From a virus (taxonomy: Duplodnaviria > Heunggongvirae > Uroviricota > Caudoviricetes): a stretch of 64,000 nucleotides of DNA. The stretch is from the IMG/VR virus record IMGVR_UViG_2851976983_000001, positions 36,474 through 100,473 of that record; one strand, written 5' to 3'. This document shows, one piece after another, positions 10,656-52,795 of this stretch (position 1 is its first letter; each line of letters opens with the position of its first letter). The notes below the pieces were generated by a model. That model worked only from the letters and a program-made list of their open reading frames with translations, did not search any database and had not been told where the DNA came from. Made by a program: the position numbers and the translations under genes.

Positions 10656-10904
10656 TCAGAGGGGGCTGACGTATGCAGCCAGTTCTGTGTATCCGCCAAT
10701 CGGTTGACCATCGATCAGTACTTGGGGGATAGTCTCTACCGGTTTACCAACAATTTCACTTAGTTTTTCCTTGTCGATACCGGCAGTGGTGATGTCGATG
10801 TACTCATAATCACCGTAGCCATGTCCCTTTAGTTGCTTCGCCATCTCGACCGCACGTTTGCAGTATGAGCAATTATCGCGTCCGTAGATAACGACCTTCA
10901 TCAC
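10656..10904 (-). CDS. glutaredoxin / NrdH-like redoxin
   Basis: MKVVIYGRDNCSYCKRA with CxxC active site; ~80 aa. Confidence 0.75.
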   Translation of the reverse strand: MMKVVIYGRDNCSYCKRAVEMAKQLKGHGYGDYEYIDITTAGIDKEKLSEIVGKPVETIPQVLIDGQPIGGYTELAAYVSPL

Positions 10905-11266
10905 TTCACCTCGTGCAACTGCTGCTTGAGAAGATAGCCTTCCAGGGGCCAGATTTTGGCAATCGCGTTCTGGCGTGCAATTTTACGTCCGATCTCCGGA
11001 TCAAAGTTCTCCGGGCTGGCGCACGCAGACTCGCCGGTTACGGTGTAGCCGTTCTCCAGCACAAGAACGCAGAAGGTCAGCAGTTCGAGTGATTGCAGGG
11101 CCGGTTCAGGCTCTTCCTGCTTCAGCCACAACGGTGAGCTGCGATATCCGTCCGCGCCGGTAAAGTAAAACTCGCCTGAGATAACAGCTTCAATGCGTTC
11201 CGGGGTAACACGCGCGGCCGTTTTGCCTTTGGCCACAATCTCTTTTTCGATATCCATATCGGTCAT
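10901..11266 (-). CDS. hypothetical protein
   Basis: 121-aa ORF; stop overlaps the glutaredoxin start (ATGA coupling). Confidence 0.5.
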   Translation of the reverse strand: MTDMDIEKEIVAKGKTAARVTPERIEAVISGEFYFTGADGYRSSPLWLKQEEPEPALQSLELLTFCVLVLENGYTVTGESACASPENFDPEIGRKIARQNAIAKIWPLEGYLLKQQLHEVK

Positions 11267-11281
11267 TTTGGTTTCCTTACG

Positions 11282-11488
11282 TTAAAAACGAGCGATCCGA
11301 GCAAGAAGAATCAGGTCATACGCCTTCATCGTGTCCAGCTGCTTAATGAGGATGATGCGGTCGACATACAGCAGGCGAGCAAACACGTCGCCTGCAATGT
11401 ACGCCTCCTGTTCTTTGATGCGACCACACAGTTCTTCGTGTTCATCCATGACACGTTTCTGGTGTGGCAGGTACTCTTTGGTCATTGG
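11282..11488 (-). CDS. hypothetical small protein
   Basis: ORF 11282..11626 trimmed to the internal ATG (MTKEYLPHQ...) that begins just after the PhoH stop. Confidence 0.4.
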   Translation of the reverse strand, partial: PMTKEYLPHQKRVMDEHEELCGRIKEQEAYIAGDVFARLLYVDRIILIKQLDTMKAYDLILLARIARF

Positions 11489-12269: not shown

Positions 12270-12382
12270 ATTGAGTCCTTTCAAGTGAGTAACTGAAAGA
12301 ACTATACCGACAAATCATAGGTAAGTCATTACCTATTTTTTGTGTATTATCCCTCTACCATATAGAGGGATATCTTCATGAC

Positions 12383-13171
12383 TCACGGCAGTTTTGCTCT
12401 AATTTCGAGTAATTTTTGTGCCGTGACGCTGATGTCATAAGCCAGATCTTGGGTTTGGTTAATGATTCCGTAAAAGCGCTCAACCTCTTCAGGATAAAAA
12501 CGTCTGATATGGGGGATGTCGATATAATCATAATACCCAAGCCCACCCGCGGAATATTCTCTGAAAAGCGCCCAAAAGTTGTTCACTTTCCCGACCAACT
12601 CCATACGGATTGTTTCTAAAACAACATCATTGAAGCTGTAAAAGGGGTTATAGGCAATATTATCAAATGCGTAGAGTGGGTCGGTAATGTTGGTGCTTAC
12701 TTTTGCCCGGAACTGTTCGCTCTTCAGCATTTGGAGGTAGTTATAATTAAAAATATCAGTAATAGCTTTTAGAACACCGATGTCTCTATCTGAGTAATTG
12801 TTCTGGCTCACCTGGTGCGTCATTTGAAGCAGTAAAGATTGCCGAGTTTCGGCCAGTTGCTTCCAGTTTTTCAATTGCTCAACAGAATAGATAGTGTGGT
12901 CAGAGTCAATGAGTGCGCCATGTGAACGACACATCCATATACCGTTATCAATCGAGCTTCGCTGTTCTGGGGTCAAGCTAGGATCATATCTCGGCCCACC
13001 TGGCGCTGCTGCTGTAATATGGGCCGCAATACCATTATTAATCCTGCCGTTTGTATCACTGCTATCCGGGCCTACTGTTGTCTGGTTGCAGCCAAGAAAA
13101 GAGCATTTCCAGCCTACGCGTTCGGCCAGTGTTCGCTTCACCGATTGGGGAAAATCATCTCTGTTACTCAC
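12383..13171 (-). CDS. HNH endonuclease-like domain protein with uncharacterised C-terminal domain
   Basis: N-terminal WKCSFLGCN...AAHI...NGIWMCRSHGALID (Cys pairs plus His/Asn spacing of HNH nucleases); the remaining ~150 aa match nothing I recognise. Confidence 0.5.
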   Translation of the reverse strand: MSNRDDFPQSVKRTLAERVGWKCSFLGCNQTTVGPDSSDTNGRINNGIAAHITAAAPGGPRYDPSLTPEQRSSIDNGIWMCRSHGALIDSDHTIYSVEQLKNWKQLAETRQSLLLQMTHQVSQNNYSDRDIGVLKAITDIFNYNYLQMLKSEQFRAKVSTNITDPLYAFDNIAYNPFYSFNDVVLETIRMELVGKVNNFWALFREYSAGGLGYYDYIDIPHIRRFYPEEVERFYGIINQTQDLAYDISVTAQKLLEIRAKLP

Positions 13172-13211
13172 GATTAACCTCGCTGTGTTTAAACAATCTT
13201 ATGGTTATTTG

Positions 13212-13781
13212 TTAGTGGCGTTTGTCTTCTTCCAGACGCGCCGTTTTTAAGTGTTTGTCGGTAAAGGTAAGTAACGTTACGCCCTCATCTTTATTCATGA
13301 AACCGGCACCGTTTATCATCATGATCAGGCGCTCTTTGCCGCGGAATACCTCATAATACTTTCCCGCTGCACATGACATTGTCTTGGCGCACTCCAACCC
13401 ATTCAAGGCTGTTTCATCAAATACCTGATCTTTAGTGGCAACCGGCTTCCCGTATTCTTTCGTAAGCATTTCGTCGAGCTGCATGAAGGTATACTTGCCG
13501 ACGTTGGTAGTCATGCTTGACTCAACTTTGCCATCAATCAATCCACCGGTGGTATGCGGTTCCTTACCTTCAGCCGCTGCTTTATCGAACAAAGCGAAGG
13601 CTTCGATGTTTGGGGTTCGTTTTTCAAAGTGGGTTTTGTACTGGCTCTCAAGGGAGTTTTTGTCCTGACCGATTAGTGTAATTTTATCGACTTCAGACTC
13701 GTTGCATCCCGTGAGTGTGAACGCGATTATTAGAGAGGTGAGAATAGTGAAGTTGCGCTTTTTCATTGATGCTATCTCCAT
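13212..13781 (-). CDS. lipoprotein
   Basis: MKKRNFTILTSLIIAFTLTGC signal peptide with LTGC lipobox. Confidence 0.6.
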   Translation of the reverse strand: MEIASMKKRNFTILTSLIIAFTLTGCNESEVDKITLIGQDKNSLESQYKTHFEKRTPNIEAFALFDKAAAEGKEPHTTGGLIDGKVESSMTTNVGKYTFMQLDEMLTKEYGKPVATKDQVFDETALNGLECAKTMSCAAGKYYEVFRGKERLIMMINGAGFMNKDEGVTLLTFTDKHLKTARLEEDKRH

Positions 13782-13844
13782 GCAAACAGCTACGTTCCTA
13801 CTACGGGTGGCACTTCAGATAAATACTTTAGACCTTGGCAGATA

Positions 13845-14573
13845 TTAACCGATGCTGTTTTGATACCTGCGAACTGCCGCATCCAATTCACTAACATATC
13901 GATTAAACTCACCCACAACATACTCCAAAAATTGATCGTCCATGAGGACACCGTTGAAGAAATTTACTGTTATACCGGCGTTTTCATTCTTTGCACGATT
14001 GATTGCGCGGATATCTCGCTTCTGTGTTTCTGACTTCTTTGCTTTTGATTTTAAAAGGTTATGATAGTTTTCGGCAACACCATCGTTGTGAGCCATGATA
14101 TTTCTGATGGCCGCCAGATGAGCAATATCCCTGATGCCTTTGCCTCCTATGGTTCCAGTAAGTCGCTTATGGCAATCTTCGACCGTTTTGAATCTTTTGT
14201 CTGTCACCTCGCCCGACAATCTATCCATGACCTCAAGGCATTCAACCATGCGGTGTTCAAATAACCCGAACATCGTCAGAAATGCCGAACGACGAGTAAG
14301 TTGTGAAATCAAGTGCTTGTATTCCGATTTGACTTCATCAGCATCGAATCCAGAACATGAACCGCAGGTAAAATACTGTACCGTATATAGATGAATTTTA
14401 CCTTCATCGTCCTCATGCTCATCGTCATACTCACCCTCCGAGACTGCGCCCGGAAGATCGGCATCACTAAGAGCGCGAGCAATGTTTACTTCAGCCTGTT
14501 CAGCTAGCATCTTCATGATTGTAATTGATTTCGTGGCTCCCCAAAGTTGTAGATTAATAAATATCTTTGCCAT
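13845..14573 (-). CDS. hypothetical protein with HEPN-like Rx4H motif
   Basis: IAHLAAIRNIMAHND contains R-x4-H; acidic N-terminal stretch; last gene upstream of the tRNA region. Confidence 0.3.
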   Translation of the reverse strand: MAKIFINLQLWGATKSITIMKMLAEQAEVNIARALSDADLPGAVSEGEYDDEHEDDEGKIHLYTVQYFTCGSCSGFDADEVKSEYKHLISQLTRRSAFLTMFGLFEHRMVECLEVMDRLSGEVTDKRFKTVEDCHKRLTGTIGGKGIRDIAHLAAIRNIMAHNDGVAENYHNLLKSKAKKSETQKRDIRAINRAKNENAGITVNFFNGVLMDDQFLEYVVGEFNRYVSELDAAVRRYQNSIG

Positions 14574-14656
14574 CTTCCTTGTTCCTTAGAGTGTTCGGAG
14601 AAGATCCAAATAGCGTCAACCAAATGCCGCTGAATTCATATGTACGACCGCAAAGC

Positions 14657-14680
14657 AAAATGGGGCCGAAGCCCCATTTT
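14657..14680. terminator. bidirectional terminator hairpin
   Basis: AAAATGGGGCCGAAGCCCCATTTT; same GGGGCCGAAGCCCC core as 15141..15164. Confidence 0.55.
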
Positions 14681-14835
14681 ATTCAAACTATTTATTCTGC
14701 TGGCACCTAAACAAAAGGTAAAGCATAAGCAGAGATAGGACTTGGCTATGCAGAGGAGCCTGAATAAATGTCGTTAGCATTTCACTCATCGAAAGATACC
14801 TCTATTCGATTAATCAAATGCGCTACGAGACCAAA

Positions 14836-14864
14836 TTGACGTAGATTCACCTTAGTTGTAAGAT
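14836..14864 (+). promoter_or_regulatory. strong sigma70 promoter candidate on the plus strand
   Basis: -35 TTGACG (14836..14841), 17-nt spacer, -10 TAAGAT (14859..14864). Confidence 0.45.
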
Positions 14865-14870
14865 GAACTT

Positions 14871-14969
14871 GTATTGACGTATCCGTTCTCGTAACGCGAT
14901 ATGAGGTTTTTAACGATGGCAGTCGTTAAAAACCAGAAAGAACTCCCGTTCGGGGGTTCTTTTTTTTTT
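14871..14969 (+). ncRNA. candidate ~100-nt small RNA
   Basis: Downstream of the promoter above; two hairpins (14905..14934 with an 11-bp stem; 14939..14960) followed by a T9 tract; no plausible ORF. Confidence 0.3.
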
Positions 14970-15140
14970 GCGTAGTAGTCACTTTCCCATTGCACTTCCC
15001 TCTCGTTGTATGAAAACTACGGATTGTAGCATTTCCAATAGCTTGTTTATAATTTGCATAGCATAGCACAACCCACATGCGCATGTAGGACTGACAGGAA
15101 TTGCCCCACAACGTATAAAAAAGTTTGTGATTATCAAAGA

Positions 15141-15164
15141 AAAAAGGGGCCGAAGCCCCTTTGG
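15141..15164. terminator. bidirectional terminator hairpin
   Basis: AAAAAGGGGCCGAAGCCCCTTTGG. Confidence 0.5.
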
Positions 15165-15236
15165 ATTATGGTTTGCGCTAAAAAAGTGTTGCTACGATGC
15201 TAAGAAGCAATGGTTAAGAACGTCTGCCGTGTCTAT

Positions 15237-15319
15237 CACAGCGCTGAACGGTTTGGCGACATTTGCGGAGTCTTTCCGTTCGGACGGTGGTGGCGAACTC
15301 CAAACCGTTCAGCGCTGTG
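15237..15319. repeat. long perfect inverted repeat (20-bp arms) abutting the tRNA 3' end
   Basis: CACAGCGCTGAACGGTTTGG ... CCAAACCGTTCAGCGCTGTG with ~43-nt loop. Confidence 0.6.
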
Positions 15320-15320
15320 T

Positions 15321-15395
15321 TGGCGATGGTGGGTGGACTCGAACCACCGACCAGTTGATTAACAGTCAACCGCTCTACCACTGAGCTACACCATC
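15321..15395 (-). tRNA. tRNA-Asn (anticodon GUU)
   Basis: Minus-strand sequence GATGGTG-TA-GCTC-AGTGGTA-GAGC-G-GTTGA-CTGTTAA-TCAAC-TGGTC-GGTGG-TTCGAGT-CCACC-CACCATC-G-CCA folds as a cloverleaf with encoded CCA; 75 nt. Confidence 0.85.
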
Positions 15396-15834
15396 ATATT
15401 TCGCGGCGGTACTTGTTGATGGACAACCAGGCAACCAGGAACTTTCCCGCAACTTGCACTTTACGTTAGTGCCAGACGAGGCTTGTGGCGCGCTCACATA
15501 GAGCAAAGATCTGGAATCCTTCTCGGTGGTTGACGGCCGCCAGATTCTTCGATCTTATTGGATGTATGGAATCATCCATGTTGTGAAACCAGGGGCTACA
15601 TAGGCAACAATGATTTCACCAGAGGGTTAAAGAATCCTGCTTTCACAACGTTGAGGCCGCTGAACCGATTTATGTTCGACCCAACATATTGATCAGTCAC
15701 TACAGCTCTGTGGAATCACCTGTATGATTAAAAGAAAAACAGTGACCTCAACGTTGTGCGCTGGCTAACCAAGCCAGCCGGGTTACGTCGCCGCTTTTAA
15801 CCCAAGATTAAACGACATAAGTAATGGAAATGAC

Positions 15835-29386: not shown

Positions 29387-29452
29387 GAAAAGTCAAATCG
29401 GGATGGCGGATTTATATCACATTTCACCCTTTTGTTGTAGGTGTGTACTTAC

Positions 29453-29689
29453 CTACCATTCAGCATTGCAACGGACTGATGAGAAAGCACCTACTCCTAC
29501 CCATCGCCAGTTATAGATGCTACCCGCTTTGTATAAGGTATAGTCGTTCACTTTTTTAACAGCATATATGGGTATGACTGTCTCCTGTCCACCAATGATA
29601 GCCTCACCATAACATATAGGTGTCGGCAATTTCTGGCAGCCAGTAAGAGAGAGAACAACAGCTATTGTTAGAAATAATCTTTTCATCAT
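29453..29689 (-). CDS. small lipoprotein
   Basis: MMKRLFLTIAVVLSLTGC signal peptide with LTGC lipobox; 78 aa. Confidence 0.6.
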   Translation of the reverse strand: MMKRLFLTIAVVLSLTGCQKLPTPICYGEAIIGGQETVIPIYAVKKVNDYTLYKAGSIYNWRWVGVGAFSSVRCNAEW

Positions 29690-30559: not shown

Positions 30560-32023
30560 AAATATATCCTTATACTTTTAAGCAGGGGCTGGTTTAGTTC
30601 CAGCCCCGATTGAAGTTGTTTATTCTTTAGGTGAATTTAACTTCGTTTCAAGCTCCTCAACCCTTTTGGTCAATTGCTGAATATGATGAATGAGTGGTAC
30701 AACCAAACGCTCATACATCACCCCTTCAGCGACCATACCATTTGAGGAAATATCTTCTGGAGAATCATTATTTGTTGGTTCACGCCAATGGACATATTGC
30801 GGGGCAATCTCACCTACCTCTTCAGCAATAAGGCCGTAATACCCCCAATCCTTTCGGTCACCTCGACAAATTGAACGATACCAAACAGGTCTTAATGACA
30901 AAAGTTCATCAGCATATCGATCTTGTAATGTTTCAATATCCTTTTTATAGCGCCTTGAAGATGTTGAACGCCAAACTGTATTGATACCTGGGTTTGGATC
31001 AATGTACATATTGGCACCGCTAGTAGTTGTGCCAATATCCCATATAGCAAACCCTCCACTACCGCCTGATTTGACAACCAGTGTTTCAGCAATAATATCC
31101 AGGTTGCCACTATAGCCTGTCAGTGATGATCTGCTTGCATAGGAACTTAGAAGGTTTGTTACCTCTGTTTTCGTGTAAGCATTAAGGTTAGCCGCAGTCA
31201 AAGTAATATCGGCAGAGCCATCAAACGCCACACCAGCAATTTTCCTTGCTGTCTGCAATTTTGTGGCTGTTGCGGCATTACCAGTAGTATTCTGATTACC
31301 GGTTGTATTCACACCAGGGATTGAATCCTTAGCAGTATATACCTGCGCCCACGCTGACCATGCCGCATCTGTGGTATCTCTTCGTGAGCGAATGAAAACT
31401 GGCGCATGTGCACCGCTCGTACCACTCCAGCCAATAAGCAACTCGCCCTCACCAGCAGCACTCGCACCTTTCATGTGCAATACGTTGCCATACGTGGTCG
31501 GATAGCTATTGTTGTACGCCTCGTACATTTGAATGCCAGCAGTGCCTTGAGTAGAGCCGCTTAATGCCGTAACTCGGCCACGAGATACCAGTGTATTAAT
31601 GTTGATATCGCCTGAGCCATCAAACTTAACACCATTGATGTTTCTCGCTGTTTGCAACTTCGTAGCTGTTGAAGCATTACCGTTCAAACTACCATTTACG
31701 CCACCAGTCACATTTAGTCCATTACCAATTGATACCGCACCGCTGGTATTATTAATTGTAATAGGTCGCAAACCGTTCCATGAACCTAATGTGTCTCCTG
31801 ATGCTGTTAGCATGAAATATGTGTTCGATCCATCATTACGGATAAAGAACCCAAAGCTACCGTAAGCAATGCGGAAACCATTTGCATATTTTGAAATGAT
31901 CTCACCAGAAGACGTTAATCCGCCAGTTAACGCTCCTCCAGATAGTGGTAAAGCTCCGACATCAGCCGCAGTAGGCTTGTTTTTAGTGTTATACGCTCTG
32001 CGCCATCCTGGTTGGATTTGCCC

Positions 32024-32929
32024 CTATATTTCCAGACATCTGTTATCACTTAACCCATTACAAGCCCGCTGCCGCAGATATTCCCGTGGCGAGCGATAAC
32101 CCAGCGCACTATGCGGATGCCATTCGTTATAATGCTCGAACGCCTCTGCAAGGTTCTTTGCTGCCGTTAACCCGTCTGGTTTGGGCATGATACTGATGTA
32201 GTCACGCTTTATCGTTTTCACGAAGCTCTCTGCTATTCCGTTACTCTCCGGACTCCGCACCGCCGTGTTCTTCGGTTCAAGTCCCAACATCCGGGCGAAC
32301 TGGCGTGTTTCATTAGCCCGGTAGCATGAACCATTATCCGTCAGCCACTCCACTGGAGACGACGGAAGATCGTTGCCGAAGCGGCGTTCCACCGCTCCCA
32401 GCATGACGTCCTGTACTGTTTCACTGTTGAAGCCGCCGGTAGTCACCGCCCAGTGCAGTGCCTCACGATCACAGCAGTCCAGCGCGAACGTGACACGCAG
32501 TCTCTCTCCGTTATCACAGCAGAACTCGAACCCGTCAGAGCACCATCGCTGATTGCTTTCTTTCACGGCCACTCTGCCTGTATGTGCCCGTTTCGATGGC
32601 GGTACAGCAGGTTTTCGCTCAAGCAACAGCGCATTCTGGCGCATGATCCGGTAAACACGTTTGGCATTGATCGCAGGCATACCATCAAGTTCTGCCTGTC
32701 TGCGAAGCAGCGCCCATACCCGACGATAACCATACGTGGGCAGCTCTCCGATAACATGGTGTATACGGAGAAGCACATCCGTATCATCAGTGTGACGACT
32801 GCGGCGGCCATCCATCCAGTCATCGGTTCGTCTGAGAATGACGTGCAACTGCGCACGCGACACCCGGAGACAACGGCTGACTAAGCTTACTCCCCATCCC
32901 CGGGCAATAAGGGCGCGTGCGCTATCCAC
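32024..32929 (-). CDS. insD: IS2 transposase OrfB
   Basis: 301 aa, recognised as IS2 InsD. Confidence 0.9.
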
Positions 32930-33252
32930 TTTTTTGCCCGTCCATATTCAACGGCTTCTTTGAGGAGTTCATTTTCCATCGTTTTCTTGCCGAGCAGGCG
33001 CTGGAGTTCTTTAATCTGCTTCATGGCGGCAGCAAGTTCAGAGGCAGGAACAACCTGTTCTCCGGCGGCGACAGCAGTAAGACTTCCTTCCTGGTATTGC
33101 TTACGCCAGAGAAATAACTGGCTGGCTGCTACACCATGTTGCCGGGCAACGAGGGAGACCGTCATCCCCGGTTCAAAGCTCTGCTGAACAATTGCGATCT
33201 TTTCCTGTGTGGTACGCCGTCTGCGTTTCTCCGGCCCTAAGACATCAATCAT
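32887..33252 (-). CDS. insC: IS2 OrfA (HTH)
   Basis: [41 protein letters not shown]...; ORF-track start trimmed to the IS2 orfA ATG. Confidence 0.9.
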
Positions 33253-36134
33253 CTGTTCTCCAATGACTAGTCTAAAAACTAGTATTAAGACTATCACTTA
33301 TTTAAGTGATACTGGTTGTCTGGAGATTCAGGGGGCCAGTCTACTGGTGAATAGCTCGTCCCGTTAAATACATAGATAAACTCCGCATTAGTGAGAGCAC
33401 CAGAGACACTCGTCGTTGTGGCCGTTGTTATACGGATCGTATAATTGTTTGAGCTACTACCGTTATTAAATACCTCTATAACAGCTCCTGCTAATGGAAT
33501 AACGCCACAACCAGTTTCACTATTTGGTATGGTTGCACTATTGGCATAGGCCCACGCACATCGAGCAATCCATGACTTTGTGTTAAATGCTCCATTATTT
33601 TGCAATAACGTCACTAACTGTGCTGTTGTTATTGCTCCGCCATTACTTCCTGTAGTTAACCAACCAGTAGGAGATGCCGGGCAACCTATATTTGCTGGCG
33701 ACAAGGAAATATTTGCCGAGCCGTCAAACGACACCCCATTGATAGTACGCGCAGTCTGCAACTTCGTAGCAGTAGCCGCGTTGCCCGTTGTATTCTGATT
33801 ACCAGTCGTATTAACACCTGGCAAATTAATATTCGCAGTACCATCAAAGCTCACGCCGCCGATAGTTCTTGCCGTCTGAAGTTTTGTAGCAGTTGCAGCA
33901 TTACCAGTGGTGTTCTGATTACCCGTAGTATTTACACCTGGAAGGTTGATATTTGCAGAACCGTCGAAACCAACTCCACCGATAGATCTTGCCGTCTGCA
34001 ATTTCGTTGCTGTACTTGCATTACCATTTAATGTTCCGGTGATCCCACCAGTAACAGACAACGGACCTGAAACTGTTCCTCCGGTTGTTGGCAGTGCTCC
34101 AATATCTAACGGCGTCGGTTTCTGATGTGTGCTATACATCGTATAAACAACACCATCGGTAACGCTGGAAGGCTTACTAGCTGAATATGTTGGCGATGTA
34201 TAAATAGAAACTGTCGCATTTGCAGTACAATCCCAATGGATATTTACACGAGTCGCATAATTGCCAATCTCAACGTAAATATCATATGTATCGCCGGATG
34301 TGTTGATCCAGGCGAAATTCGTTAATCCGACAGCTGTACGCTTCCACAAAGCACCTGTAATCCCTTTGGGGTTTCCATTGCCTGCTCGTAGAACCAGTTC
34401 TGAAATGCCTGCCTGATGTGGGGAGCCGACGTTGTAACCAGCGCCACCAATCAATGCGATGTAAACGATGGAACTCGCTTGTGGCATTGTAACAGTAGCC
34501 AGTTTGAACCACCCGGCCCCGCCAGAGAAAGACATCGTTATTGAATTTAAAGTACCAATATCTTTCGGCGTTAATGTGATATCCGCAGTCAGTGCTTTCC
34601 CGTTAATTTTTCGGTTAGATGGCACCCTGCTGTTCGCATTGTCATTGACTACTTTAACTGCTTTTGGCGTTGCGGCCAGCGATTCACTGGTGCTGTCGAC
34701 AGCACTGCTAAGTTTCACAACACCTTTAGTTGTAAGGCTTGCGTCTTCCATCGCAACTGCACCGGCAATCTCTTCAGCACGATCAGCAGCAGCTTCCGCA
34801 CGGGTCGCAGCGGATTCAGCAGCAGTTTTGCTCTGAGATGCTGCCGTCGCACTGCCTGCCGCCTCTGTTGCTTTCGTGGATGCCGTCGTGGCGCTGCCCT
34901 TCGCTGCTGACGCCTGTCTGGTCGCCTCATCTTTTGAAGCAGACGCAGATGATGCCGATGACGCTGCCGAACTGGCGGACGATGCGGCTGCCGTTTTTGA
35001 GGATTCTGCACGGGTTTCCGACGCTTTCGCGTTCGTTTCGGATGTCTTCGCTGCGGAAGCAGACCTCGCTGCTGCGCTGGCCTGTTCAGTGGCTTCGCCA
35101 GCCTTCGTTGTGGCTGTTGAAGCAGACGATGCGGCACTTTCTGCCGATTTTCCGGCGGCGGTGGCACTGGCTGAGGCCTGCCCGGCACTTGTTGACGCGG
35201 CACTGGCAGACGACGCAGCCGCTGTTTTTGAGCCTGCCGCAGCCGAGGCGCTCTGTCCCGCTGCCGTTTCAGAAGACCTGGCGTTCGTCTCGGACGTTTT
35301 TGCCGCCTTCGCGGAATTTCCTGCCGCCGTTGCCGAGGAAGCGGCATTACTGGCGCTCGAGGCTGCGCTCGTTTCTGATGATTTCGCTGCCTCTTTTGAG
35401 GCCGCCGCATCCCGGGCTGAGGTGGCAGCTTCTGACGCCTTCGTGGTCGCGGTGGATGCAGAAGTGGCTGCAGATTTTTGTGACGCTGCAGCATTCGTTT
35501 CAGACGTTTTCGCGGCACCGGCACTGGTGGCCGCCGCGCTTTTTGAGGACTCTGCAGCGGATGCACTTTGAGACGCTTGAGAGGCTTTTTCTCCAGCGGT
35601 ATTGGCGCTTTCTGCTGCTGCGGCAGCACTGGCCGCCGCCTCACGAGCTTTGTCGCCAGCAGCATCAATCGCGTCAGTGTTATTTTTATACCACTCAACG
35701 TTTTCGTTGTGCTCGTTGACGATCTGCATTAGCGGCTTAACGGCCACTTCTGTACCGTCTTCACGCTCGATTGTCACCTCATCCAGAGCAGTCAACCAAC
35801 TGCGCATGGACTTGGAATCAGCCGACATACGCGACATTAGTGCTGTAAAGCGCGCGCTAAACTGTGTTAAGTCGCCTTCATAGGTCGTAATGATTCGGCA
35901 CGGAACTTCAGACTGAGTTTCGCCGGTATAAGGTTCTGAGAGAACAATGTTCGTATCACTGGTTACGCGCTTGATCTCATACAGCTTATTGTCGGGGCCA
36001 ATGACGATCATCCCCGGCAACACACCATTAGCTGTTACGTTCCAGGCTGTCCCTGCCCCAACCAGAGTATTGCTGCCCTGTGTAAATGTGATAGTACCTT
36101 CCCTGTACCACATGTTGAATATGCTCCTTGATTT

Positions 36135-36155
36135 GGTGGGCTATCCTTGCCCACC
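36135..36155. promoter_or_regulatory. hairpin between the J-like stop and the tail-fibre start
   Basis: GGTGGGC-TATCCTT-GCCCACC; preceded on the minus strand by an ATAAGTA-type palindrome (36156..36176). Confidence 0.4.
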
Positions 36156-39100
36156 ATTAAGTATGTACCTACTTATTTTTACCTATATAAATATTTTTTT
36201 CTACATTACAGAAGGCCAATTCTTACTCGTAGGACGTTGTTATCGTCATAAACGTCAATCCGCTGACCATTTATGACCAGTCGCCCATTACCCCCGCTAT
36301 TACCGTTGATCTCAAGCGTTCCATTTTTGCCGAACCGCCATCCAGATCTACCGCTAACAAAATTGGTAGATTGCAGATCGCCTACTTTTGCATTGGTGAT
36401 TGTGCCATCCTTGATATACGCACCATTCATATAGGCGATACTGTTTTCGATAACAAATGGCGTGGTGATCTTCCCGTTAACAGAGTTGACCAAACCAAAC
36501 CTGTCAGCCTGCACCAAAAACTGAGAAAGGCCAGTGGTGTCGATACCAAGCGCAATACCAGCAACATACTTCTGCCCTCCGCTCGTTGAAGTCTCCATTT
36601 TCAACGTCCACGCGGTTGACACTTTTTTGTTGGTATCAGCAATAGCTGTTGCCTGCTGTTGAATTGTCGCGGTATTTCCATCCACCTCTGCTTTCAGAGT
36701 GTCGATTCGCCCACTTAGAGCATTATCTGCCTGCGTTCTCGCTGTCGTTTCAGTTGTGACCGCCGCAGAAATGTTGGCTGCTGTTTGAGACTCTAAGTTT
36801 GTGATTTGAGTCGCCAATGCCGCATCTTGCTCTGTACGCGTTTTCGTTTCGGTTGCTACAGCCGCTTTAATATCCTCTTTGTATTGAGAGGTCAGCTTGG
36901 TGATCTGAGACGACAACGCCGAGTCAGCATCAGTTCGAGCCTGCGTTTCAACTGCAACGGCCGCACTAATATCTTTCGCTGTCTGTGCTTTTAAACTTGA
37001 AACCTCTTTTGTTAAAGCGGTATCACCATCAGCACGAGCCGTTGTTTCTCTGGCAAGAGATGCCTCGAGATCATTAGCTTTTGCTGTAAGAGACGAAATC
37101 TGAGTGGACAATGCACTATCGGCATCAGTCCTTGCCTTTGTCTCTACAGCAACCGCTGCGGCAATATCAGTTCCGGTTTGTGCTCGCAGGCTGTTAATTT
37201 CTCGTGAGAGCGCCTGGTCAGCACTTGCTCTGGTCTCCTGCTCCTGAGTGATGGCAGCGGATATATCACCGTCAACCTTTGACTGAAGCTGGTTTATTTG
37301 TTTGGCTAACGCAGAGTCCCCGCTTGCTCGGGCCTCCTGCTCACTACGTATTGCAGCAGAAATATCATCATCAACCTTTGCCTGAAGTTGGGTGATCTGG
37401 CTTGCCAGAGCCGAATCTTCCGTTGCTCGGGCTTCTTGCTCTTCCTTAATAGCTGCGACGATATCGTTGCTTACTTTCGACTCAAGCTGAGTGATCTGTG
37501 TCGTCAGAGCTTCATCGGCAGATGTGCGAGCCTCCTGCTCTGTACTAATCGCCGCGCTGATATCTCCTTCAAACTTAGATTGCAGCTGAGTGACACGCTT
37601 TGCCAACGCTTCATCGCCATCGGCACGAGCGGTGGACTCTTCCAGAATACTGGCCTTAATGTCTTCGCCAATTTCTACGCGAATTTCCTCAACCTTCGTG
37701 GCCATTGCAGACATATCATCAGCAAAGGTTTTCTGTGTTGTTGCGATCTTCGCGTTATTGACCATCTGCTTGTGCTGGTCTTCATCTTGACGAAGAGCCA
37801 GGTCAATATTTGTTTTGGCTAACGCCTCAATGTTCGTAGTCAGTTCTGCACTGGCACGATCGACCTCTGCAACCGTCTTTTTCATTTCTTCAACGGCAGC
37901 GGAGCTTTCCTCTACCGTTGACTGCAACACTTCCAGTTGTTTAGCGTTTGCAGCATCGCCTTCAACACGAGCCTCGCTTTCCTTAGCAATAAGAGCCGCC
38001 GCTTCATCTCTTGCAGCCTTTATTGCCTCGACTGTATTAGCGAGAGCTTTATCGTGTTCAGATACGGTGTTTTCGATTTCAACAATTGCAGCATCAGTAG
38101 CATCAATTTTTTCAAACGCTTCATTGACCTTGTCGATCGTTGCCGAAACCTCACCTTTAAGCTCGGTTTGTGCGTTCTCCAAAGCATCGCTACGCTCGTT
38201 GAATTTTATTTCAAAACCCGCGAGGTTATCGCTGAACTGCTTATCTAATTCAGCTATATCTTCCTTAACGTCGTTTACCGACCCCTCCAAAGATTCGACG
38301 CTCTGGTTGATATGCTCATTTAACTCGTCAACTGCTTCTTGAGAGGCTTTGCTGTTGATGTCCTCAAGCAGAGCCTGACCAAGCTCGGAAGATGTAATTT
38401 TGCCAGCCAGGAACGACAGTACATCGCGAGTTGTCGCCTCTGTACCCAAGTTTGAGTTCGGAGGGCTTAACATACCTCGCTTGTTCGATGCTCGAACCCA
38501 GTAATACCACGTTTCGCTATCCCCAAGACCAGCATGTGTAAAGGTGGTGCTTGCAGACTCTGCGATCAGTTTCGCCGTATCCAGATTGTTGGTCTGGGAT
38601 GCGTAAACATTAATGTGATCAAGGTCTACCGAATCTGGATTAACCCAATTCAGTATCACATTACGATAGTCTCCAACGGCCGTTAATGACGTTGGGGCAT
38701 CCGGCGGTGTCATTGTGCCCAACACCTGATAAACGGTACTGATAATCTCTGTTTTTTTACCGTTGAATGAAACCGCATACAGTTGGAAGTCGTAGTGTCC
38801 ATTCTCCGCGACATTAACGATTTCGTATTGCTCTTCGGTTACACGCGCCGATTGCCAGTTCGATACATTGTTTTCATCAGAACGTCGCCAACTGATCCAA
38901 TACTCTGGAGATTTTCCTTCCCATGTTGCAGTCAGTTTTACTGACAGGTTGCCCGGGCTTGAGAGATAAGTCCCTTCAGTGATTTGCAGATTAGATGGCT
39001 TGGAGTAAGTTGGGTCCAATACCGTCGTATTCTGCGGGATCAGCGTTGCGCCATTGTCGATTGCCTCATATTTAGACGGATTGTTCTCAACAGCGGTGAT

Positions 39101-39229
39101 GTCAAAGCTACCCGGCGTTTCCCCCTGCGCGATGTTAACGATGCGAACGCGCATAGGTTCGAGATCTGGTTCTGTAATTGTCCAGACACCGTTCAAAACA
39201 GGCGTTTCCGCTGACGACAGGGCTTTTGA

Positions 39230-41174
<1,945 letters not shown>

Positions 41175-41199
41175 ACTTCCTGAGAAAGAGGTAAACAGG

Positions 41200-41522
41200 A
41201 TGACTAAAAATACTCGTTTTTCCCCCGAAGTCCGTCAACGGGCAGTCCGTATGGTTCTGGAAAGTCAGGATGAATATGACTCACAGTGGGCGGCAATTTG
41301 TTCCATTGCCCCAAAGATTGGCTGTACGCCGGAGACTCTGCGTGTCTGGGTTCGCCAGCATGAGCGGGATACCGGGGGCGGTGATGGTGGGCTCACCAGC
41401 GCTGAACGTCAGCGTCTGAAAGAGCTGGAACGTGAAAATCGTGAACTGCGCCGCAGTAACGATATCCTTCGCCAGGCTTCCGCTTATTTTGCGAAGGCGG
41501 AGTTCGACCGCCTCTGGAAGAA

Positions 41523-41526
<4 letters not shown>
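41200..41526 (+). CDS. IS3-family transposase OrfA
   Basis: [57 protein letters not shown] (HTH + leucine zipper). Confidence 0.9.
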
Positions 41527-42551
<1,025 letters not shown>

Positions 42552-44219
42552 CGATTTTGCCTTCCTGATTCAATATCCGAATAAAGCTGCCACTTTTAGC
42601 TAACGACACAGGCGCATCGAGAGTGATGCTGTTTTTGGTAAACTCCACAATTCGACCGGAGTTACGTTTACCTGCACGATATTTGTTCTGAATCAGAACG
42701 GTTTCACCAGGCATCAGAAATGAGGCGTCTAAGCCGGCAGTAAATGTAATTACATCCGACTCCATTCTGGCGGTATACAAAAGCCACAAACCAACTCGGT
42801 GAGCCTGGCCTCGGCTTGTACATCCAAATGCTACGACTTCTGTTTTACGCTCACCATAACGGCGCATTGCGTCCTGATCTTCAACGTATTCGATGTTTTG
42901 CTTATAACCGTCCTCCTTGTTGTTGTAGGTTACGAGCGCAACGGATGGGCGATCTTTACGCGCAGAACCTTTATAGGTAAACAGTCCATCTTTGACGTTG
43001 GAGTTGGTAAACATCATTACCGGATCTGATGGGCTATCCTGCATGATGTTAACCATGCCACCAGCCCAAAACACCATGCCGCGGAATGCACCGGCAATAT
43101 CCTGAATTAATCGGTATGCGTCTTGTCGACTGGTGATCTGCGTATTGATTGCAAAGCGTTTCTCTTTACCCCCAAAGCCATCATCGACCTCTTCGTCACA
43201 ATATCGACCAATCTGGTAGAGCTGGCCGAGGTCAATCATGGATTCCGACACAAATTGCCCAAGACCATACCGAGTATTGGTAAGCAAATCGTAGAGAATC
43301 CACGCAGGGTTTGAAGAAGACAACAGCTTAAAAGTACCGTCCCATACGCCGACATAAGTATTGGTGTATTCGTTGTAGTTTGACGGTACTCGGATTTTGA
43401 TACCGCGCACCAAATACGAACGGGAAGGGATTGTGCTACCAAACTGCTCTGAATTGACCTTCAAGCCAACAAGAGCAGAGTTAGGGTAGTTCATTGGCGT
43501 GTCGACAATCTCACCGATGGAATCAACCCATGTGTCGTTGTAGAGGTACTGGCTACTATTATCATCTGTAAGACGAATCACCCTAACCTTGTATGCACGA
43601 CCAGGCTTAGGCAGTTTCAGCTCATAGCTACGGTAATACACGCCGGTTTTCTTTGCCGTTAGCGTGATATCAACGCTTTTCTCACCTTCTGCCACTACAT
43701 CAGAAAATGTTGCGTCTGCGTTGGCGATCTGGAATTTGTACTTCACCGTAGTGCCATTTGTATCGCCAGAGCTTTTATCAACGCTACGTAAAGAGGGGAA
43801 TTTCATGATGACACGAACGCGATCAGCTTCATCGTTATCGATTGAAACCGTAACGTCGTGTGTTTTTTTAAGCTGAATATTTACGGACTTAGGCGTTTCG
43901 ACAAAATCAAAACCAGCCATTGGCGTCTGATCTTGTGAGCCGTCACGAAAATCCCATGTAATACCGCTGAAGTTGGAAGAGCCATCTTCATTCAAGATCG
44001 GTAAATCGTCGATGAAGATCGACTTTGCGCCATTTACCAGGCCACCGATAACCCCCTCGCCAAGAAGGTCGAGGATGGCTGCCATAGCACGAGAATTGAC
44101 AGTATCATCAGCTTCAACCGGGGTACGGCTGGAGCTTTTACTTTTCTTGCCACCAGCACCGGCAATAAGAAGCGGTAATTTTTTCTTCTTGAACTGTTCC
44201 ATGTCCAAAAAATCCTTGA

Positions 44220-44810
44220 TTACATAAGCTGGTCGATGGTGATAGAAGAACTCACGACCTGTGAGCCAACTAAAATTTCCTCGCCATAGATAAGCTGTAC
44301 AGGGTTCCCCTGGTTTGTTGTGTTTTGAGGTCCATCAAAGTAATAAGAGTTCGAGTTATCCGCCTGCCTCACACTTTCGTTAGTGGCTTGCGGAGATATG
44401 ATTTGCGCTATACCGCCCATCATCAGTGACAAACCGAGAGGCGCAAGAGCGGGCACCCATATCGAGGCAACCATTAATACTGCTCCAACAACCGTCTGAA
44501 ACCATCCAAAAGCAGATCCACCACTTCCTCGCGGAACAGGGGTAATGCGGATTTTTGCAATATTGTCAGACTGCCCCATCATCTGATATTCACTCTCGTC
44601 CACAGACCACTTGTGGCCCTGTTTATTGGTGATCTGGATGTGGTATCTGTCATAGGTTTTGATATTGCGCTTCATCCATGCTTTAAACCCAGGCTTGTTG
44701 GCCTCAATTAAATCCAGAGCCTGTTTTGTATTACGCACCTTTAGATGCCAGTGGCGGCCAAAATGTTTGGCCATAGGGCCGCCAAGCTGCACATGAACTA
44801 ACTCAGACAC
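44220..44810 (-). CDS. tail assembly protein, lambda gpI-like
   Basis: 196 aa; hydrophobic central segment; position between K-like and J-like genes. Confidence 0.65.
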   Translation of the reverse strand: MSELVHVQLGGPMAKHFGRHWHLKVRNTKQALDLIEANKPGFKAWMKRNIKTYDRYHIQITNKQGHKWSVDESEYQMMGQSDNIAKIRITPVPRGSGGSAFGWFQTVVGAVLMVASIWVPALAPLGLSLMMGGIAQIISPQATNESVRQADNSNSYYFDGPQNTTNQGNPVQLIYGEEILVGSQVVSSSITIDQLM

Positions 44811-45622
44811 GTCTCATCTCCCTTGAGCAAGTCTCTGTGACGCAAGTGATGCGTCGTATGTTTCTGATACATCCCGCCGTAATAAGCACGACAACTAAGG
44901 CGGTCGATCTGGTGATGAAGAATCATTCCATCGCCGATATAAACCGCACAGTGGTCAGGCATTTTTCCGTATTGGATAAAGAAGACGTCCCCACGTTGAG
45001 GTTCTGTTCCGGGCGCAAGCCGTACCAATCCTTCGTTTCGGTAGTTCTGATCGAGAATGTCGTTATCGCCGGTGTACCACGATGGAATATGCAGGTGTGC
45101 GTTCGGGTTTAGTTCGACGTTAAACTCACGCTTCAAATAGTCCCGACACAACATCCAGCAATCAAATACGCCAAATACATACGGTCTGCCCAGGTATGGC
45201 ATTTCGAAACCATCAGGAGTGATCACATTCATCTCGCTAAAATGGAAAGGGGCATCTCCCTCAACATTCTTGCGAATAGCCAGAATCATCCACGGAACTT
45301 CCGTCGCTTCGCAGCCTGCACGATCGGCATCAGATGCTTCTGCTGATTCATCAGTATGTGAATGCCAGATTGCGATAACATCACCCGCATCCTCTGCCGC
45401 CATAATGTCGTCAACGTGCATTACAAAAGTGTTCTGCGGGTTCTCCGAAACATTCCGCGCTTCCATAAAGCGATATTTGTCGCCATTAGTTCTAACCAGA
45501 AAGCCACACGCTTCATTAGGGTAGCGATTTATGGCGCAGAGATAGATTTGCTGCATAACGTCAGAGCCAAGCTCAGGGATTGCTTTATTACCCATACCGC
45601 GTAGCTCCAATAAATCCGCCAA
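44798..45622 (-). CDS. tail assembly protein, lambda gpK-like (JAB/MPN + NlpC/P60)
   Basis: EACGFL...HSH JAB-like motifs and DCWMLCRDY NlpC/P60-like Cys motif. Confidence 0.75.
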   Translation of the reverse strand: MADLLELRGMGNKAIPELGSDVMQQIYLCAINRYPNEACGFLVRTNGDKYRFMEARNVSENPQNTFVMHVDDIMAAEDAGDVIAIWHSHTDESAEASDADRAGCEATEVPWMILAIRKNVEGDAPFHFSEMNVITPDGFEMPYLGRPYVFGVFDCWMLCRDYLKREFNVELNPNAHLHIPSWYTGDNDILDQNYRNEGLVRLAPGTEPQRGDVFFIQYGKMPDHCAVYIGDGMILHHQIDRLSCRAYYGGMYQKHTTHHLRHRDLLKGDETCLS

Positions 45623-46286
45623 AATGGATCACACCGTCGGCAAAATAATTCCGACGCGCATTACAGGCGTCATAACGTTTTGTGCAGTAATCAGCACCAG
45701 ACATAGACGTCTGCTGGTTATTTTTGTCGAAATATGGACCGGTATAGCCGCATTCTGGCCCTCGGTATTTCCACGGGCAGGTGTTTTTAATGATCTGACG
45801 ATACGGCAGTTGCACCCCCATCAAATCGAACACACTGGACAATTCAAACTCGACAACCTGATGAGTTTCGAGAGTTTTCTGTTCGATAAACCACATTTCA
45901 TCCGGGAAATGTTGGTTTGGATCTGCTGTTGGGTTGCCGTCTTTAAAATTAACGGCATCGAGGAAGCGAGCCAGCGTCATCTTGCGAATAATGCGGCAGC
46001 CAACAAGATCGTCGTTCGCCTGAACTTCCGCAGAGACGGTTCCGGCAAAGTTCGATACCTGAATTTTTGGACGTGGCAACGTTCCCTGGCCAGTTTTGTC
46101 AAAGCCTGATGCTTTGATTGGCCACGGCTCGTATGTCACTCCTTGCCAGACGACCGGTTGCATCAGTTCGTTTGTTCCGGCGTGGAAGAATAGCTTCCCC
46201 CCTGAAGTTGTGTTCGACATATCCAGTACGAACAACTCAATGAGTGCAGAGGGAGATAAGCTCTGAATATCAGCTTTAATTCCCAT
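45588..46286 (-). CDS. minor tail protein, lambda gpL-like
   Basis: Collinear with lambda L (...VVWQGVTYEPWPIKASGFD..., C-terminal Cys cluster); start trimmed to MGIKADIQ with AAGGA RBS. Confidence 0.8.
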   Translation of the reverse strand: MGIKADIQSLSPSALIELFVLDMSNTTSGGKLFFHAGTNELMQPVVWQGVTYEPWPIKASGFDKTGQGTLPRPKIQVSNFAGTVSAEVQANDDLVGCRIIRKMTLARFLDAVNFKDGNPTADPNQHFPDEMWFIEQKTLETHQVVEFELSSVFDLMGVQLPYRQIIKNTCPWKYRGPECGYTGPYFDKNNQQTSMSGADYCTKRYDACNARRNYFADGVIHFGGFIGATRYG

Positions 46287-46368
46287 TGTTTCATCCTTGA
46301 AATAAGTAGGCGCTGACATCCTGTCAGCGCCACAATGATAGTAAATTAGTACTTACTTATCCAGATAC

Positions 46369-46704
46369 TTAAGCCTCAAATACTTGTCTGAATGTAGCAG
46401 TTAAGACACAGTACCCCTGATATCGCTTGACCGTATGACTGTCACATACAACTACAATCTGCTTGCCTCTTGGATTAACCCAATAGAACGATTCAACGCC
46501 TGATCGCTCAGTCAGGAAGTCATCGATTGCATTAATTTCGTTGTATGATCTGGTAAAGGTTAACGACCATTCTTCTTTAATACGATTAAGACCTTGAGCC
46601 TGTCGCTGCTCGTAGTCATCACCAAAATTAAGTACCGTTACATTCGGTTTTACGCTTTTTTCAGATTCGTAATCTGGATACCAATTAAACGTTTGTCTTT
46701 CCAT
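46369..46704 (-). CDS. minor tail protein, lambda gpM-like
   Basis: 111 aa; position and size match lambda M. Confidence 0.65.
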   Translation of the reverse strand: MERQTFNWYPDYESEKSVKPNVTVLNFGDDYEQRQAQGLNRIKEEWSLTFTRSYNEINAIDDFLTERSGVESFYWVNPRGKQIVVVCDSHTVKRYQGYCVLTATFRQVFEA

Positions 46705-46746
46705 CTCACATCCTTGTGAGACTGCCCCGGTCGGGGCAGTCGATAG

Positions 46747-51339: not shown

Positions 51340-51595
51340 ATATTTGCATCAGTTGCTCTTTGGCGTCAGGGTCTGCCTTATCCTGGCTTGGATCGTAGAC
51401 TTTATCTGTTACGACTGGTCTTCCAATCCTGAGTTGCAAACCCTCCATGAACGCCTTCACAGCCTCGCCATCCGCCTGGGACGCACGAGCGACTTGTAAG
51501 TTGCGGACATCCTCTTCCGCACGCAGACGGTCTATATTGCGACTGAGCATCCAGAACATCGTGAGAGGAACGTTCAGTAGCTCTAATGGCGACAC
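51326..51595 (-). CDS. tail assembly chaperone T-portion (GT frameshift product)
   Basis: Frame stays open upstream of the annotated start and overlaps the G stop in the -1 frame. Confidence 0.5.
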   Translation of the reverse strand: MSPLELLNVPLTMFWMLSRNIDRLRAEEDVRNLQVARASQADGEAVKAFMEGLQLRIGRPVVTDKVYDPSQDKADPDAKEQLMQIFGRG

Positions 51596-51675
51596 GGCGT
51601 AGTGAGCAACTACACGACTGAAATAGAATCCGAGATCTATTGAGACGGTCCTTGTCCCGGATTCATCGCGGGAAA

Positions 51676-51993
51676 TTACTTTGCCCCTTCGCCAGCCGCT
51701 TTTTCGTTTTCTTCATCAATCACTTCCATAGCGAAGGTGAAGATCTGCTGGAGTTGCGGAACAGTCAGTTTTTCAAGAACTTCGTCAGGTACTGAAGGGA
51801 TAACCTTACGAACCAGATCTGCATAAGCTGTCACTTGCTCAACAGGAGACATGTTCATGAGATCTTTACCTTCCATCTGCTTGATGGAAACGAACAGACC
51901 TACCGTCATTTCAACGATGGGATATTCCTGACCGCCAAATTTGATGCTTTTCTTCGGAGGCAGAATGGAATCGAGATCGAGTAATTTGGTCAT
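51676..51993 (-). CDS. tail assembly chaperone (gpG-like)
   Basis: 105 aa acidic protein between major tail and tape-measure genes. Confidence 0.6.
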   Translation of the reverse strand: MTKLLDLDSILPPKKSIKFGGQEYPIVEMTVGLFVSIKQMEGKDLMNMSPVEQVTAYADLVRKVIPSVPDEVLEKLTVPQLQQIFTFAMEVIDEENEKAAGEGAK

Positions 51994-52048
51994 TGGTTAA
52001 AATCCTTTTAAAAGAGAGGCCCATCCTGAGCCTCTGCTTAATTACTGA

Positions 52049-52795
52049 TTAATCTGCGGGGTTAATCGTTACTGATTTAGTTGCCTTCTTACCACCGCTA
52101 TTGCTGGTGAAGGAGATATTTGTAGAACCCTGCGCCACACCACGTACCAGACCCGTTTGATCTACCGTGGCCTTTTCCTGGTCTTCGGATTCCCAAACAC
52201 CGGTTTTGTCTGCGGCATCAGCTGGAGTGATTTCGGCTGTCAGTTGCACAGTTTCTCCAGCTTTTACGGTTGGAGATTCCGGTGCGATCGACACAGTTTT
52301 TACCGGTTTAGGGCCGCTCATTCTTCCCAGAACGCCTTCGTCATCAGGGTATGCGCTGAACTGAACAGAGAACACACGAACATCATCAGACTGGTAGGTC
52401 ATAGTGAAGTTGCCCGCGGTTGCCGCTTTCGGGATGGTCAACACATAGTCGGTGGTGTCCTGCGGAGTCAGAACCAGCTCCTTCGCCACATCAATCAGGT
52501 TAACGCCCTGTGCAGATGTGATCGTGACAGAGTTGTCATCTTCGCTCAGAGTAGAACCAGGCATCAGGTCAACCATGTTTTGGAGTACAGACTCAGCCAG
52601 AGGCGCGGTGATGGTAATGTTGCGCCCCTGAACTAATTCGGAAATTACGGTCTGCCCCAACTGATCGACGGTGACTTTCAGTGTTTCAGTGGCTACTTCA
52701 ACCTGAACACCACCTTTGGTGTAACCCAAATCCACACCACCAAACGACACCTTACAGGCACCAAGTTTGATGTTTTTTACATGGGTATTAGACAT
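52049..52795 (-). CDS. major tail protein with C-terminal Ig-like (Big_2) domain
   Basis: Start trimmed to MSNTHVK with AAGGAG RBS; C-terminal Ig-like segment VKTVSIAPESPTVKAGETVQLTAEITP... Confidence 0.7.
   Translation of the reverse strand: MSNTHVKNIKLGACKVSFGGVDLGYTKGGVQVEVATETLKVTVDQLGQTVISELVQGRNITITAPLAESVLQNMVDLMPGSTLSEDDNSVTITSAQGVNLIDVAKELVLTPQDTTDYVLTIPKAATAGNFTMTYQSDDVRVFSVQFSAYPDDEGVLGRMSGPKPVKTVSIAPESPTVKAGETVQLTAEITPADAADKTGVWESEDQEKATVDQTGLVRGVAQGSTNISFTSNSGGKKATKSVTINPAD

Follow-up and report, generated by a model that had tools for sequence, protein, structure and literature searches.

A recombination-prone cargo slot with genes for a predicted HNH nuclease, a lipoprotein and a HEPN-fold protein in the phage-plasmid p503829_100

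The stretch of DNA analysed (64,000 nucleotides, positions 36,474 to 100,473 of IMG/VR record IMGVR_UViG_2851976983_000001), here called the window, is 100% identical to plasmid p503829_100 of Escherichia coli 503829 (NZ_CP025870.1). The plasmid has terminase, portal, capsid and tail genes in addition to RepB and ParB functions and is a phage-plasmid of the SSU5/pHCM2 type. Three minus-strand open reading frames (ORFs), here termed g1, g2 and g3, occupy positions 12383-14573, as an earlier reading of the letters alone (the sequence-only reading) had proposed. They are surrounded by the replication and nucleotide-metabolism genes phoH, ligase, glutaredoxin and dnaE and by a phage tRNA gene, and each is labeled as a hypothetical protein in RefSeq NZ_CP025870.1. 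All three are present in pHCM2 of Salmonella Typhi with 92% DNA identity. They are real genes, since each has a family of homologues: 356 clusters for g1 and 121 for g3, both reaching down to ~40-45% identity in other genera, and 16 for g2. The features of the genes are as follows.

12383..13171, minus strand: g1, 262 amino acids (aa), N-terminal HNH of Cap5/SPARHA type and C-terminal four-helix bundle
12788..13162, minus strand: HNH (His-Me finger) domain of g1, residues ~4-128, from PADLOC and PDB sequence matches
12386..12787, minus strand: C-terminal domain of g1, residues ~129-262, four-helix bundle with small beta elements, no named family
13212..13766, minus strand: g2, 184 aa with the RefSeq start, predicted lipoprotein
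13781, minus strand: alternative upstream ATG of g2 (ORF 13212-13781, 189 aa)
13704-13715, minus strand: lipobox LTGC of g2, invariant in the family
13845..14573, minus strand: g3, 242 aa, HEPN fold, N-terminal helix, acidic beta-hairpin insert at residues 45-75
14088..14105, minus strand: motif R157-N-I-M-A-H162 of g3, predicted HEPN Rx4-6H catalytic motif
13783..15139, no strand: g3 cassette, 1357 bp, comprising g3, the upstream terminator and ~460 bp of non-coding DNA

From phoH to the tRNA gene extends a recombination-prone cargo slot (hotspot). The full set of g3, g2 and g1 is shared by pHCM2, Citrobacter plasmids and p503829_100. The E. coli plasmids pR9-658-1 and pToe3-1 have kept g2 and g1 and lack g3; in pToe3-1 (locus L003) 112 bp stand in place of window positions 13783-15139, between flanks that are 91-93% identical. 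The g3 cassette is gained or lost as a unit (a 1.36-kb indel) and is absent from many plasmids that retain g2 and g1. Klebsiella SSU5-like plasmids carry a 69-71% identical g3 directly beside phoH, with neither g1 nor g2. In the Klebsiella phage pJN2-26 the slot is filled by an unrelated gene of 304 aa, and in K. oxytoca pKO_JKo3_2 by two other genes, one of them a full-length match (5.9e-36) to PDC-S67, a PADLOC candidate. Alleles are exchanged as well. In one Citrobacter plasmid (locus L016) g1 is 59% identical, against 99% for phoH, 95% for g2, 90% for g3 and 98% for the ligase, and in pR9-658-1 (locus L002) g2 is 66% and g1 93.5% identical. Because the genes come and go and swap alleles independently, the apparent operon is interpreted as a secondary juxtaposition of separately mobile genes.

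Outside the SSU5-like group, homologues of g1 and g3 were never found together, nor with g2, at the loci examined. Solitary full-length g1 homologues occur in a Klebsiella integrase island, in an integrative and conjugative element (ICE) of Pseudomonas aeruginosa, in Morganella, where the gene adjoins ParDE, in Burkholderia, and in an integron-like cassette array of Vibrio. Solitary g3 homologues are found in a Pectobacterium ICE, in Pseudomonas, and on 252 plasmids, 92 of them conjugative. In the P. aeruginosa ICE (L007, 5702-6810) an Xre-type helix-turn-helix (HTH) gene lies 3 bp upstream of the g1 homologue, and on a Pantoea plasmid (L028, 3538-4555) a truncated g3 homologue follows an HTH regulator gene after 1 bp. 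Such layouts look like toxin-antitoxin or regulator-effector pairs; none is present in the window.

In p503829_100 itself the genes are bounded by two hairpins, the second of which is followed by a promoter-like site.

14656..14681, no strand: upstream hairpin, bidirectional-looking intrinsic terminator, 84 nt 5' of the g3 start codon
12348..12372, minus strand: downstream hairpin, 11-bp stem, beginning 10 nt past the g1 stop codon
12329-12301, minus strand: promoter-like site for phoH, past the downstream hairpin

The upstream hairpin (14657-14680, AAAATGGGGC-TTCG-GCCCCATTTT) has a GC-rich stem with U/A tracts on either side and folds with -16.8 kcal/mol on the minus and -14.9 kcal/mol on the plus strand, which bears out the bidirectional terminator that the sequence-only reading had located there. 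The same reading had set a bounding hairpin at 12343..12365 and called the operon insulated. The hairpin exists (-15.1 kcal/mol, z -2.6), but at 12348-12372, and it is not a canonical intrinsic terminator because the minus strand past it is A-rich and has no U tract. Folding of the gaps between g3 and g2 (63-78 nt) and between g2 and g1 (40 nt) gave no significant structure, so that co-transcription is plausible, and the three co-oriented genes are probably co-transcribed in p503829_100. Terminators of the form GGGGC-NNNN-GCCCC at 14651-14683 and 15135-15167 constitute a direct repeat of 33 nt, with 85% identity and a distance of 484 bp between the copies. On its right side (15139/15140) the g3-cassette indel adjoins the second copy (15135-15167), which suggests that the cassette is exchanged by recombination at the terminators.

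The product of g1 matched PADLOC models PDC-M68A (1.6e-23), CBASS HNH endonuclease effector (1.1e-20), SAVED_HNH (3e-18) and the N-terminus of SduA (1.7e-16). All of these matches are confined to the HNH region, the SAVED_HNH alignments stopping at about residue 119. In Pfam, HNH_2 was barely detected (E 0.2). The best PDB sequence matches were 9om4 (SPARHA HNH-APAZ, 2.5e-9), with an alignment that spans only residues 11-105 of the HNH, and Cap5 7rwk (2.8e-7); 9om4 is cited in a paper on SPARHA, short-Argonaute systems with HNH effectors. An alignment of 41 homologues shows no variation at C23, C28, H51, C81 and H84 and conservation of at least 90% at N76. H51 is the predicted catalytic histidine, and C23, C28, C81 and H84 form a predicted Zn site. 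The model of the C-terminal 134 residues, a four-helix bundle, has very high confidence; the structural matches of the bundle were generic or designed bundles only, and the sequence libraries Pfam, PADLOC and NCBIfam gave no family match. The protein consists of an HNH domain of the defence-effector type and a previously undescribed domain at the place where SAVED or APAZ would sit.

None of the known systems with a similar HNH accounts for the whole of g1. Cap5 of CBASS has the same type of N-terminal HNH, followed by a C-terminal SAVED sensor of cyclic oligonucleotides instead of the four-helix bundle of g1, and no CD-NTase cyclase is annotated on the whole 100-kb plasmid or beside the distant g1 homologues examined. 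In SPARHA the HNH is fused to APAZ and paired with a short prokaryotic Argonaute (pAgo), whereas g1 lacks APAZ and no Argonaute is annotated anywhere on the plasmid. In contrast to both effectors g1 occurs as a single gene, including in the integron-like cassette array. Since the match is limited to the HNH, SAVED and APAZ are both absent and neither a cyclase nor a pAgo is annotated on the plasmid, g1 was rejected as a Cap5 or SPARHA protein. It was likewise rejected as PDC-M68, since the PDC-M68A profile aligned over positions 4-123 of 253 only and there was no partner-gene match; a PDC-M68B-type partner was not detected, g2 and g3 having no PDC-M68 matches in PADLOC. Of the 326 positions of the Shedu SduA profile the match covers only 15-127, an HNH-like part at the N-terminus, and DUF4263 was not found in Pfam; this assignment was also discarded.

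Likeness is also seen to ORF2 of the Z-region of phage P2-EC46 (phrog_34329), which, as PDC-M68A, has the HNH domain in common with g1. The match of g1 to phrog_34329 is 9.8e-29, and its identity to P2-EC46 ORF2 is 38% over residues 4-175. Past about residue 128-175 PDC-M68A and ORF2 no longer align with g1, and their C-terminal domains are different from its own. All three are sited in variable hotspots for cargo or defence genes on temperate elements. A colicin-type operon was considered and dismissed: there the HNH is C-terminal in a large toxin with translocation and receptor domains, unlike g1, in which it is N-terminal in 262 aa; an immunity ORF is lacking, and g2 has 184 aa against ~50 aa for a lysis lipoprotein.

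For g3 the structure model (predicted local distance difference test 93.2, predicted template modelling score 0.87) is an all-alpha, up-down helical bundle that resembles solved HEPN domains; a Foldseek search against the PDB was uninformative. All 58 homologues aligned have R157, N158 and H162 (R-N-x3-H), and R94, R95, E106 and H152 are equally invariant. Searched alone against PADLOC, g3 gave weak matches to RTasHEPN (9e-4) and Cas13c (8e-3). When the family members were scanned singly, 19 of the 58 matched RTasHEPN (best 8e-6) and others matched AbiD, Cas13b/c and CARF_HEPN. The Pfam matches, HEPN_RiboL-PSP, Swt1 and Abi_2, were all below the gathering score. From sequence and model together, g3 is classed as a stand-alone protein of the HEPN superfamily and a predicted RNase.

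Its closest counterparts in organization are the solitary HEPN abortive-infection proteins HepS, AbiD/AbiF/Abi_2 and the reverse transcriptase-associated HEPN of DRT; g3 is likewise a stand-alone protein of ~240 aa borne on a mobile element. HepS of the Gifsy-1 prophage is a solitary HEPN tetramer that becomes an anticodon nuclease once bound to a phage tail-tip protein, and it has no conserved partner genes (PMC13043305). Both HepS and g3 lack a conserved partner gene, and g3 has the HEPN fold with an invariant RNxxxH. Membership of g3 in the HepS family was rejected, as no sequence link to Gifsy-1 HepS was found. A type III toxin-antitoxin RNA upstream of g3 was also rejected; a terminator is present, but there are no tandem repeats in 14500-15400. 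A third candidate, an anticodon nuclease paired with a resistant tRNA-Asn, was abandoned because the tRNA-Asn is also present in plasmids without g3. The anticodon loop of the adjoining tRNA-Asn is CUGUUAA, presumably the same as that of the host tRNA-Asn, so that there is no sign of a replacement tRNA resistant to the nuclease.

The N-terminus of g2, MKKRNFTILTSLIIAFTLTG|C, is a lipoprotein signal peptide ending in a lipobox, of which L18, T19, G20 and C21 are invariant in 13 sequences. The residue at +2 governs the sorting of lipoproteins, asparagine directing them to the outer membrane, and the Asn at +2 of g2 predicts outer-membrane sorting. Residues C126 and C132 are also invariant, which fits an extracytoplasmic location. 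The 16 clusters of the family share at least 64% identity and are all enterobacterial. A profile search of 1.84 billion representative proteins found one distant full-length relative (P0264, 2.8e-8); further matches to repeat proteins (FMN_bind repeats, Cys-rich repeats) were judged spurious-looking and set aside. There is no match in Pfam, PADLOC or the PDB. As a small secreted lipoprotein of a temperate phage-like element g2 is comparable to the exclusion lipoproteins Cor and Llp, a kind that often blocks a receptor; in sequence it resembles no known lipoprotein family. Close to the tail genes, at window ~29450-29686 (record 37642-37878), is a cor gene with the annotation 'phage exclusion lipoprotein Cor', and the plasmid therefore already has a dedicated exclusion lipoprotein distinct from g2.

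The identities given to the three products by the sequence-only reading hold: the HNH-type Cys/His signature of g1 and the second part of no known domain behind it, the lipoprotein nature of g2, and the R-x4-H HEPN motif of g3. Alignment of homologues, which had been proposed as a check on the catalytic residues, found those of both the HNH and the HEPN domain invariant. Its statement that no named system matches also agrees with PADLOC, Pfam and NCBIfam, which give no full-length family.

Taken together, the slot is rather probably a cargo or defence hotspot that holds two stand-alone genes for predicted nucleases of uncharacterised families, probably effectors of abortive infection that act on a trigger, and an orphan lipoprotein gene, functionally independent of one another. 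A defence role is reasonable on account of the hotspot-like slot, the company of the g3 homologues and the g1-type HNH protein encoded by ORF2 in the P2-EC46 Z-region. P2-like phages are described in one report as carrying hotspots of anti-phage systems (PMC9122126). On the K. pneumoniae IncFIB/IncHI1B plasmid pPUTH1 (L025, 4151-5729) a g3 homologue follows UzuA/Uzume (GIY-YIG, 9.8e-60) after a gap of 17 bp, on a conjugative Serratia plasmid (L027, 2789-4720) it follows PD-T4-5 (1e-31; 'Abi family protein' in RefSeq) after 124 bp, and in Pseudomonas (L010, 5137-6732) it follows a gene for an NYN/OST-HTH protein after 91 bp. Repeatedly, then, g3 homologues are located just 3' of a co-oriented gene for another nuclease or defence protein, a placement that may reflect defence-island clustering or a looser functional pairing.

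Several points weigh against this assignment. PADLOC, Pfam and NCBIfam hold no curated full-length family for g1, g2 or g3. Elsewhere, PADLOC recognises few of the genes beside g1 homologues, which makes guilt by association a weaker argument for g1 than it is for g3. No antitoxin is evident for what would be two constitutively encoded nucleases. Within the SSU5-like group g1 and g2 are always adjacent, and a lineage-specific functional link between them is possible. The anti-phage function of g1 and g3, their triggers and substrates and the role of g2 rest on inference, not on experiment. A survey with DefenseFinder reported no defence system in pHCM2-like plasmids (bioRxiv 10.1101/2025.09.12.675607), which agrees with the lack of a full-length model match here. 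A literature search for the protein accessions and for PDC-M68 found nothing.

The sequence-only reading had taken the genes for an abortive-infection or exclusion module. An accessory or defence-type role is plausible, as stated above, but a single joint system is contradicted by the comparative genomics. In such a three-part system the lipoprotein would be the sensor and the HNH and HEPN proteins the effectors, and the co-orientation of the genes, their short terminator-free gaps, the terminator upstream and the conservation of the triad in pHCM2, the Citrobacter plasmids and p503829_100 would all be expected of it. The persistence of g2 and g1 without g3, the presence of g3 alone in Klebsiella relatives and the independent assortment of g1 and g2 alleles are difficult to reconcile with it. 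Furthermore, no homologue of g1 or g3 beyond the SSU5-like group has the other two nearby, and a periplasmic or outer-membrane lipoprotein is unable to touch cytoplasmic nucleases directly. It is the least likely of the explanations weighed here. Only slightly less improbable, and still very unlikely, is that the genes serve the lytic cycle, with g1 degrading host DNA, g3 cleaving host RNA or tRNA in the takeover of the host and g2 acting in lysis or on the envelope. Their position, with replication and nucleotide-metabolism genes around them and a phage tRNA gene adjoining, suits that explanation; however, the genes are dispensable, many relatives including Klebsiella phage records being without some or all of them, and homologues are common on elements other than phages, namely conjugative plasmids, ICEs and integron-like cassettes.

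Addiction or selfishness, with g3 a HEPN toxin for post-segregational killing, g1 a selfish HNH of the homing type, or both, is unlikely too, though less so than the preceding two explanations. The best structural matches of g3 are HEPN toxins of toxin-antitoxin systems, homologues adjoin the toxins ParDE, RelE and YafO, and some follow an HTH gene (g1 in P. aeruginosa, the truncated g3 homologue in Pantoea). No antitoxin gene of the MNT type or any other is located beside g3 in the window, however, and most homologues are solitary. Homing endonucleases are frequent among the HNH genes of phages, which counts in favour of a selfish g1, but its HNH groups by sequence and fold with Cap5, SPARHA and PDC-M68A and reaches an E value of only 0.39 against the HNH homing-endonuclease family of PHROGs. 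It has no recognisable DNA-targeting domain and is neither in nor beside a conserved target gene.

For the preferred reading, independent cargo genes with a plausible defence role, HepS serves as the template for g3 as an RNase and Cap5/SPARHA for g1 as a DNase. By analogy with HepS and AbiD/F, g3 would most likely be held as an inactive oligomer and, on a trigger supplied by an infecting phage, would cleave tRNA or mRNA and abort the infection. The HNH of g1 is of the clade that does the killing in CBASS (Cap5) and SPARHA. The HNH domains of Cap5 and SPARHA are active DNases upon oligomerisation (PMC12738770). In the same manner g1 may be a non-specific DNase activated by a trigger, with the conserved bundle as an autoinhibitory or sensing domain that controls oligomerisation of the HNH. 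The lipoprotein g2 might act alone, probably at the outer membrane, surface modification or exclusion being its most likely roles. A more far-reaching proposal, that g3 and g1 each found a new single-protein abortive-infection family and that the g1 bundle senses a phage cue directly, with neither second messenger nor guide nucleic acid, is tentative, and the chances are rather against it.

New here are an HNH domain architecture and two families, both uncharacterised, that belong to known superfamilies. Phage-plasmids of the SSU5 type, the pHCM2-like ones included, are common in S. Typhi, Shigella, E. coli and Klebsiella and are generally described as cryptic. If the far-reaching proposal is true, the pHCM2-type elements of S. 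Typhi, E. coli, Citrobacter and Klebsiella have a defence repertoire which current tools score as empty, and a small sensor made of a four-helix bundle is able to drive the HNH 'executioner' domain of Cap5/SPARHA. Should g1 and g3 prove active, SSU5-type elements would have their first assigned defence functions, and the catalogue would gain two single-gene families, a HEPN family on 252 plasmids and an HNH-plus-helical-bundle architecture. The slot between phoH and the tRNA gene could then be mined for candidates, as relatives hold PDC-S67 and other unknown genes. The adjacency of genes in one genome is insufficient for calling a multi-gene system.

Several further elements were observed near the slot and elsewhere in the window. 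A candidate small RNA (sRNA) of ~100 nt lies on the plus strand at window 14836-14975, with a promoter-like TTGACG-17-TAAGAT at 14836-14864 and the putative transcript at ~14871-14972. It would form three hairpins, the last a 13-bp stem followed by a T10 terminator (minimum free energy -43.8 kcal/mol, z -5.1). The block 14773-14965 is 84-97% conserved in SSU5-like plasmids of Salmonella, Citrobacter and Klebsiella, with flanks at ~73%. With RNAalifold on five variants, hairpin 2 had five compensatory pairs, and the plus strand is favoured by the G-U pairs. The block was found in 81 plasmids and has no Rfam family match. Since K. oxytoca pKO_JKo3_2 has the block but no g3, the candidate sRNA is not an obligate partner of g3.

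The tRNA-Asn gene is located at 15321-15395 on the minus strand. Directly 3' of it is a perfect 20-nt inverted repeat (15237-15256 / 15300-15319) with a 43-nt loop. Related plasmids have up to four tRNA genes at the slot (Ser, Thr, Tyr, Asn); only Asn is present here. The tail-fibre, tail-tip and host-specificity J genes are split or truncated by the insertion sequences IS2, IS100 and IS3 in the RefSeq annotation (window ~31800-44200, record 40003-52391), and p503829_100 is therefore probably unable to form infectious particles. Just downstream of phoH, two small genes at window 10901-11485 encode a crAss001_48-related protein (PF21825, 8e-13) and a protein of the N4 Gp49/Sf6 gp66 family (PF13876, 6e-32). 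The latter is called a putative cyclic-nucleotide phosphodiesterase in the annotation of pJN2-26 and could be an anti-defence function beside the cargo slot.

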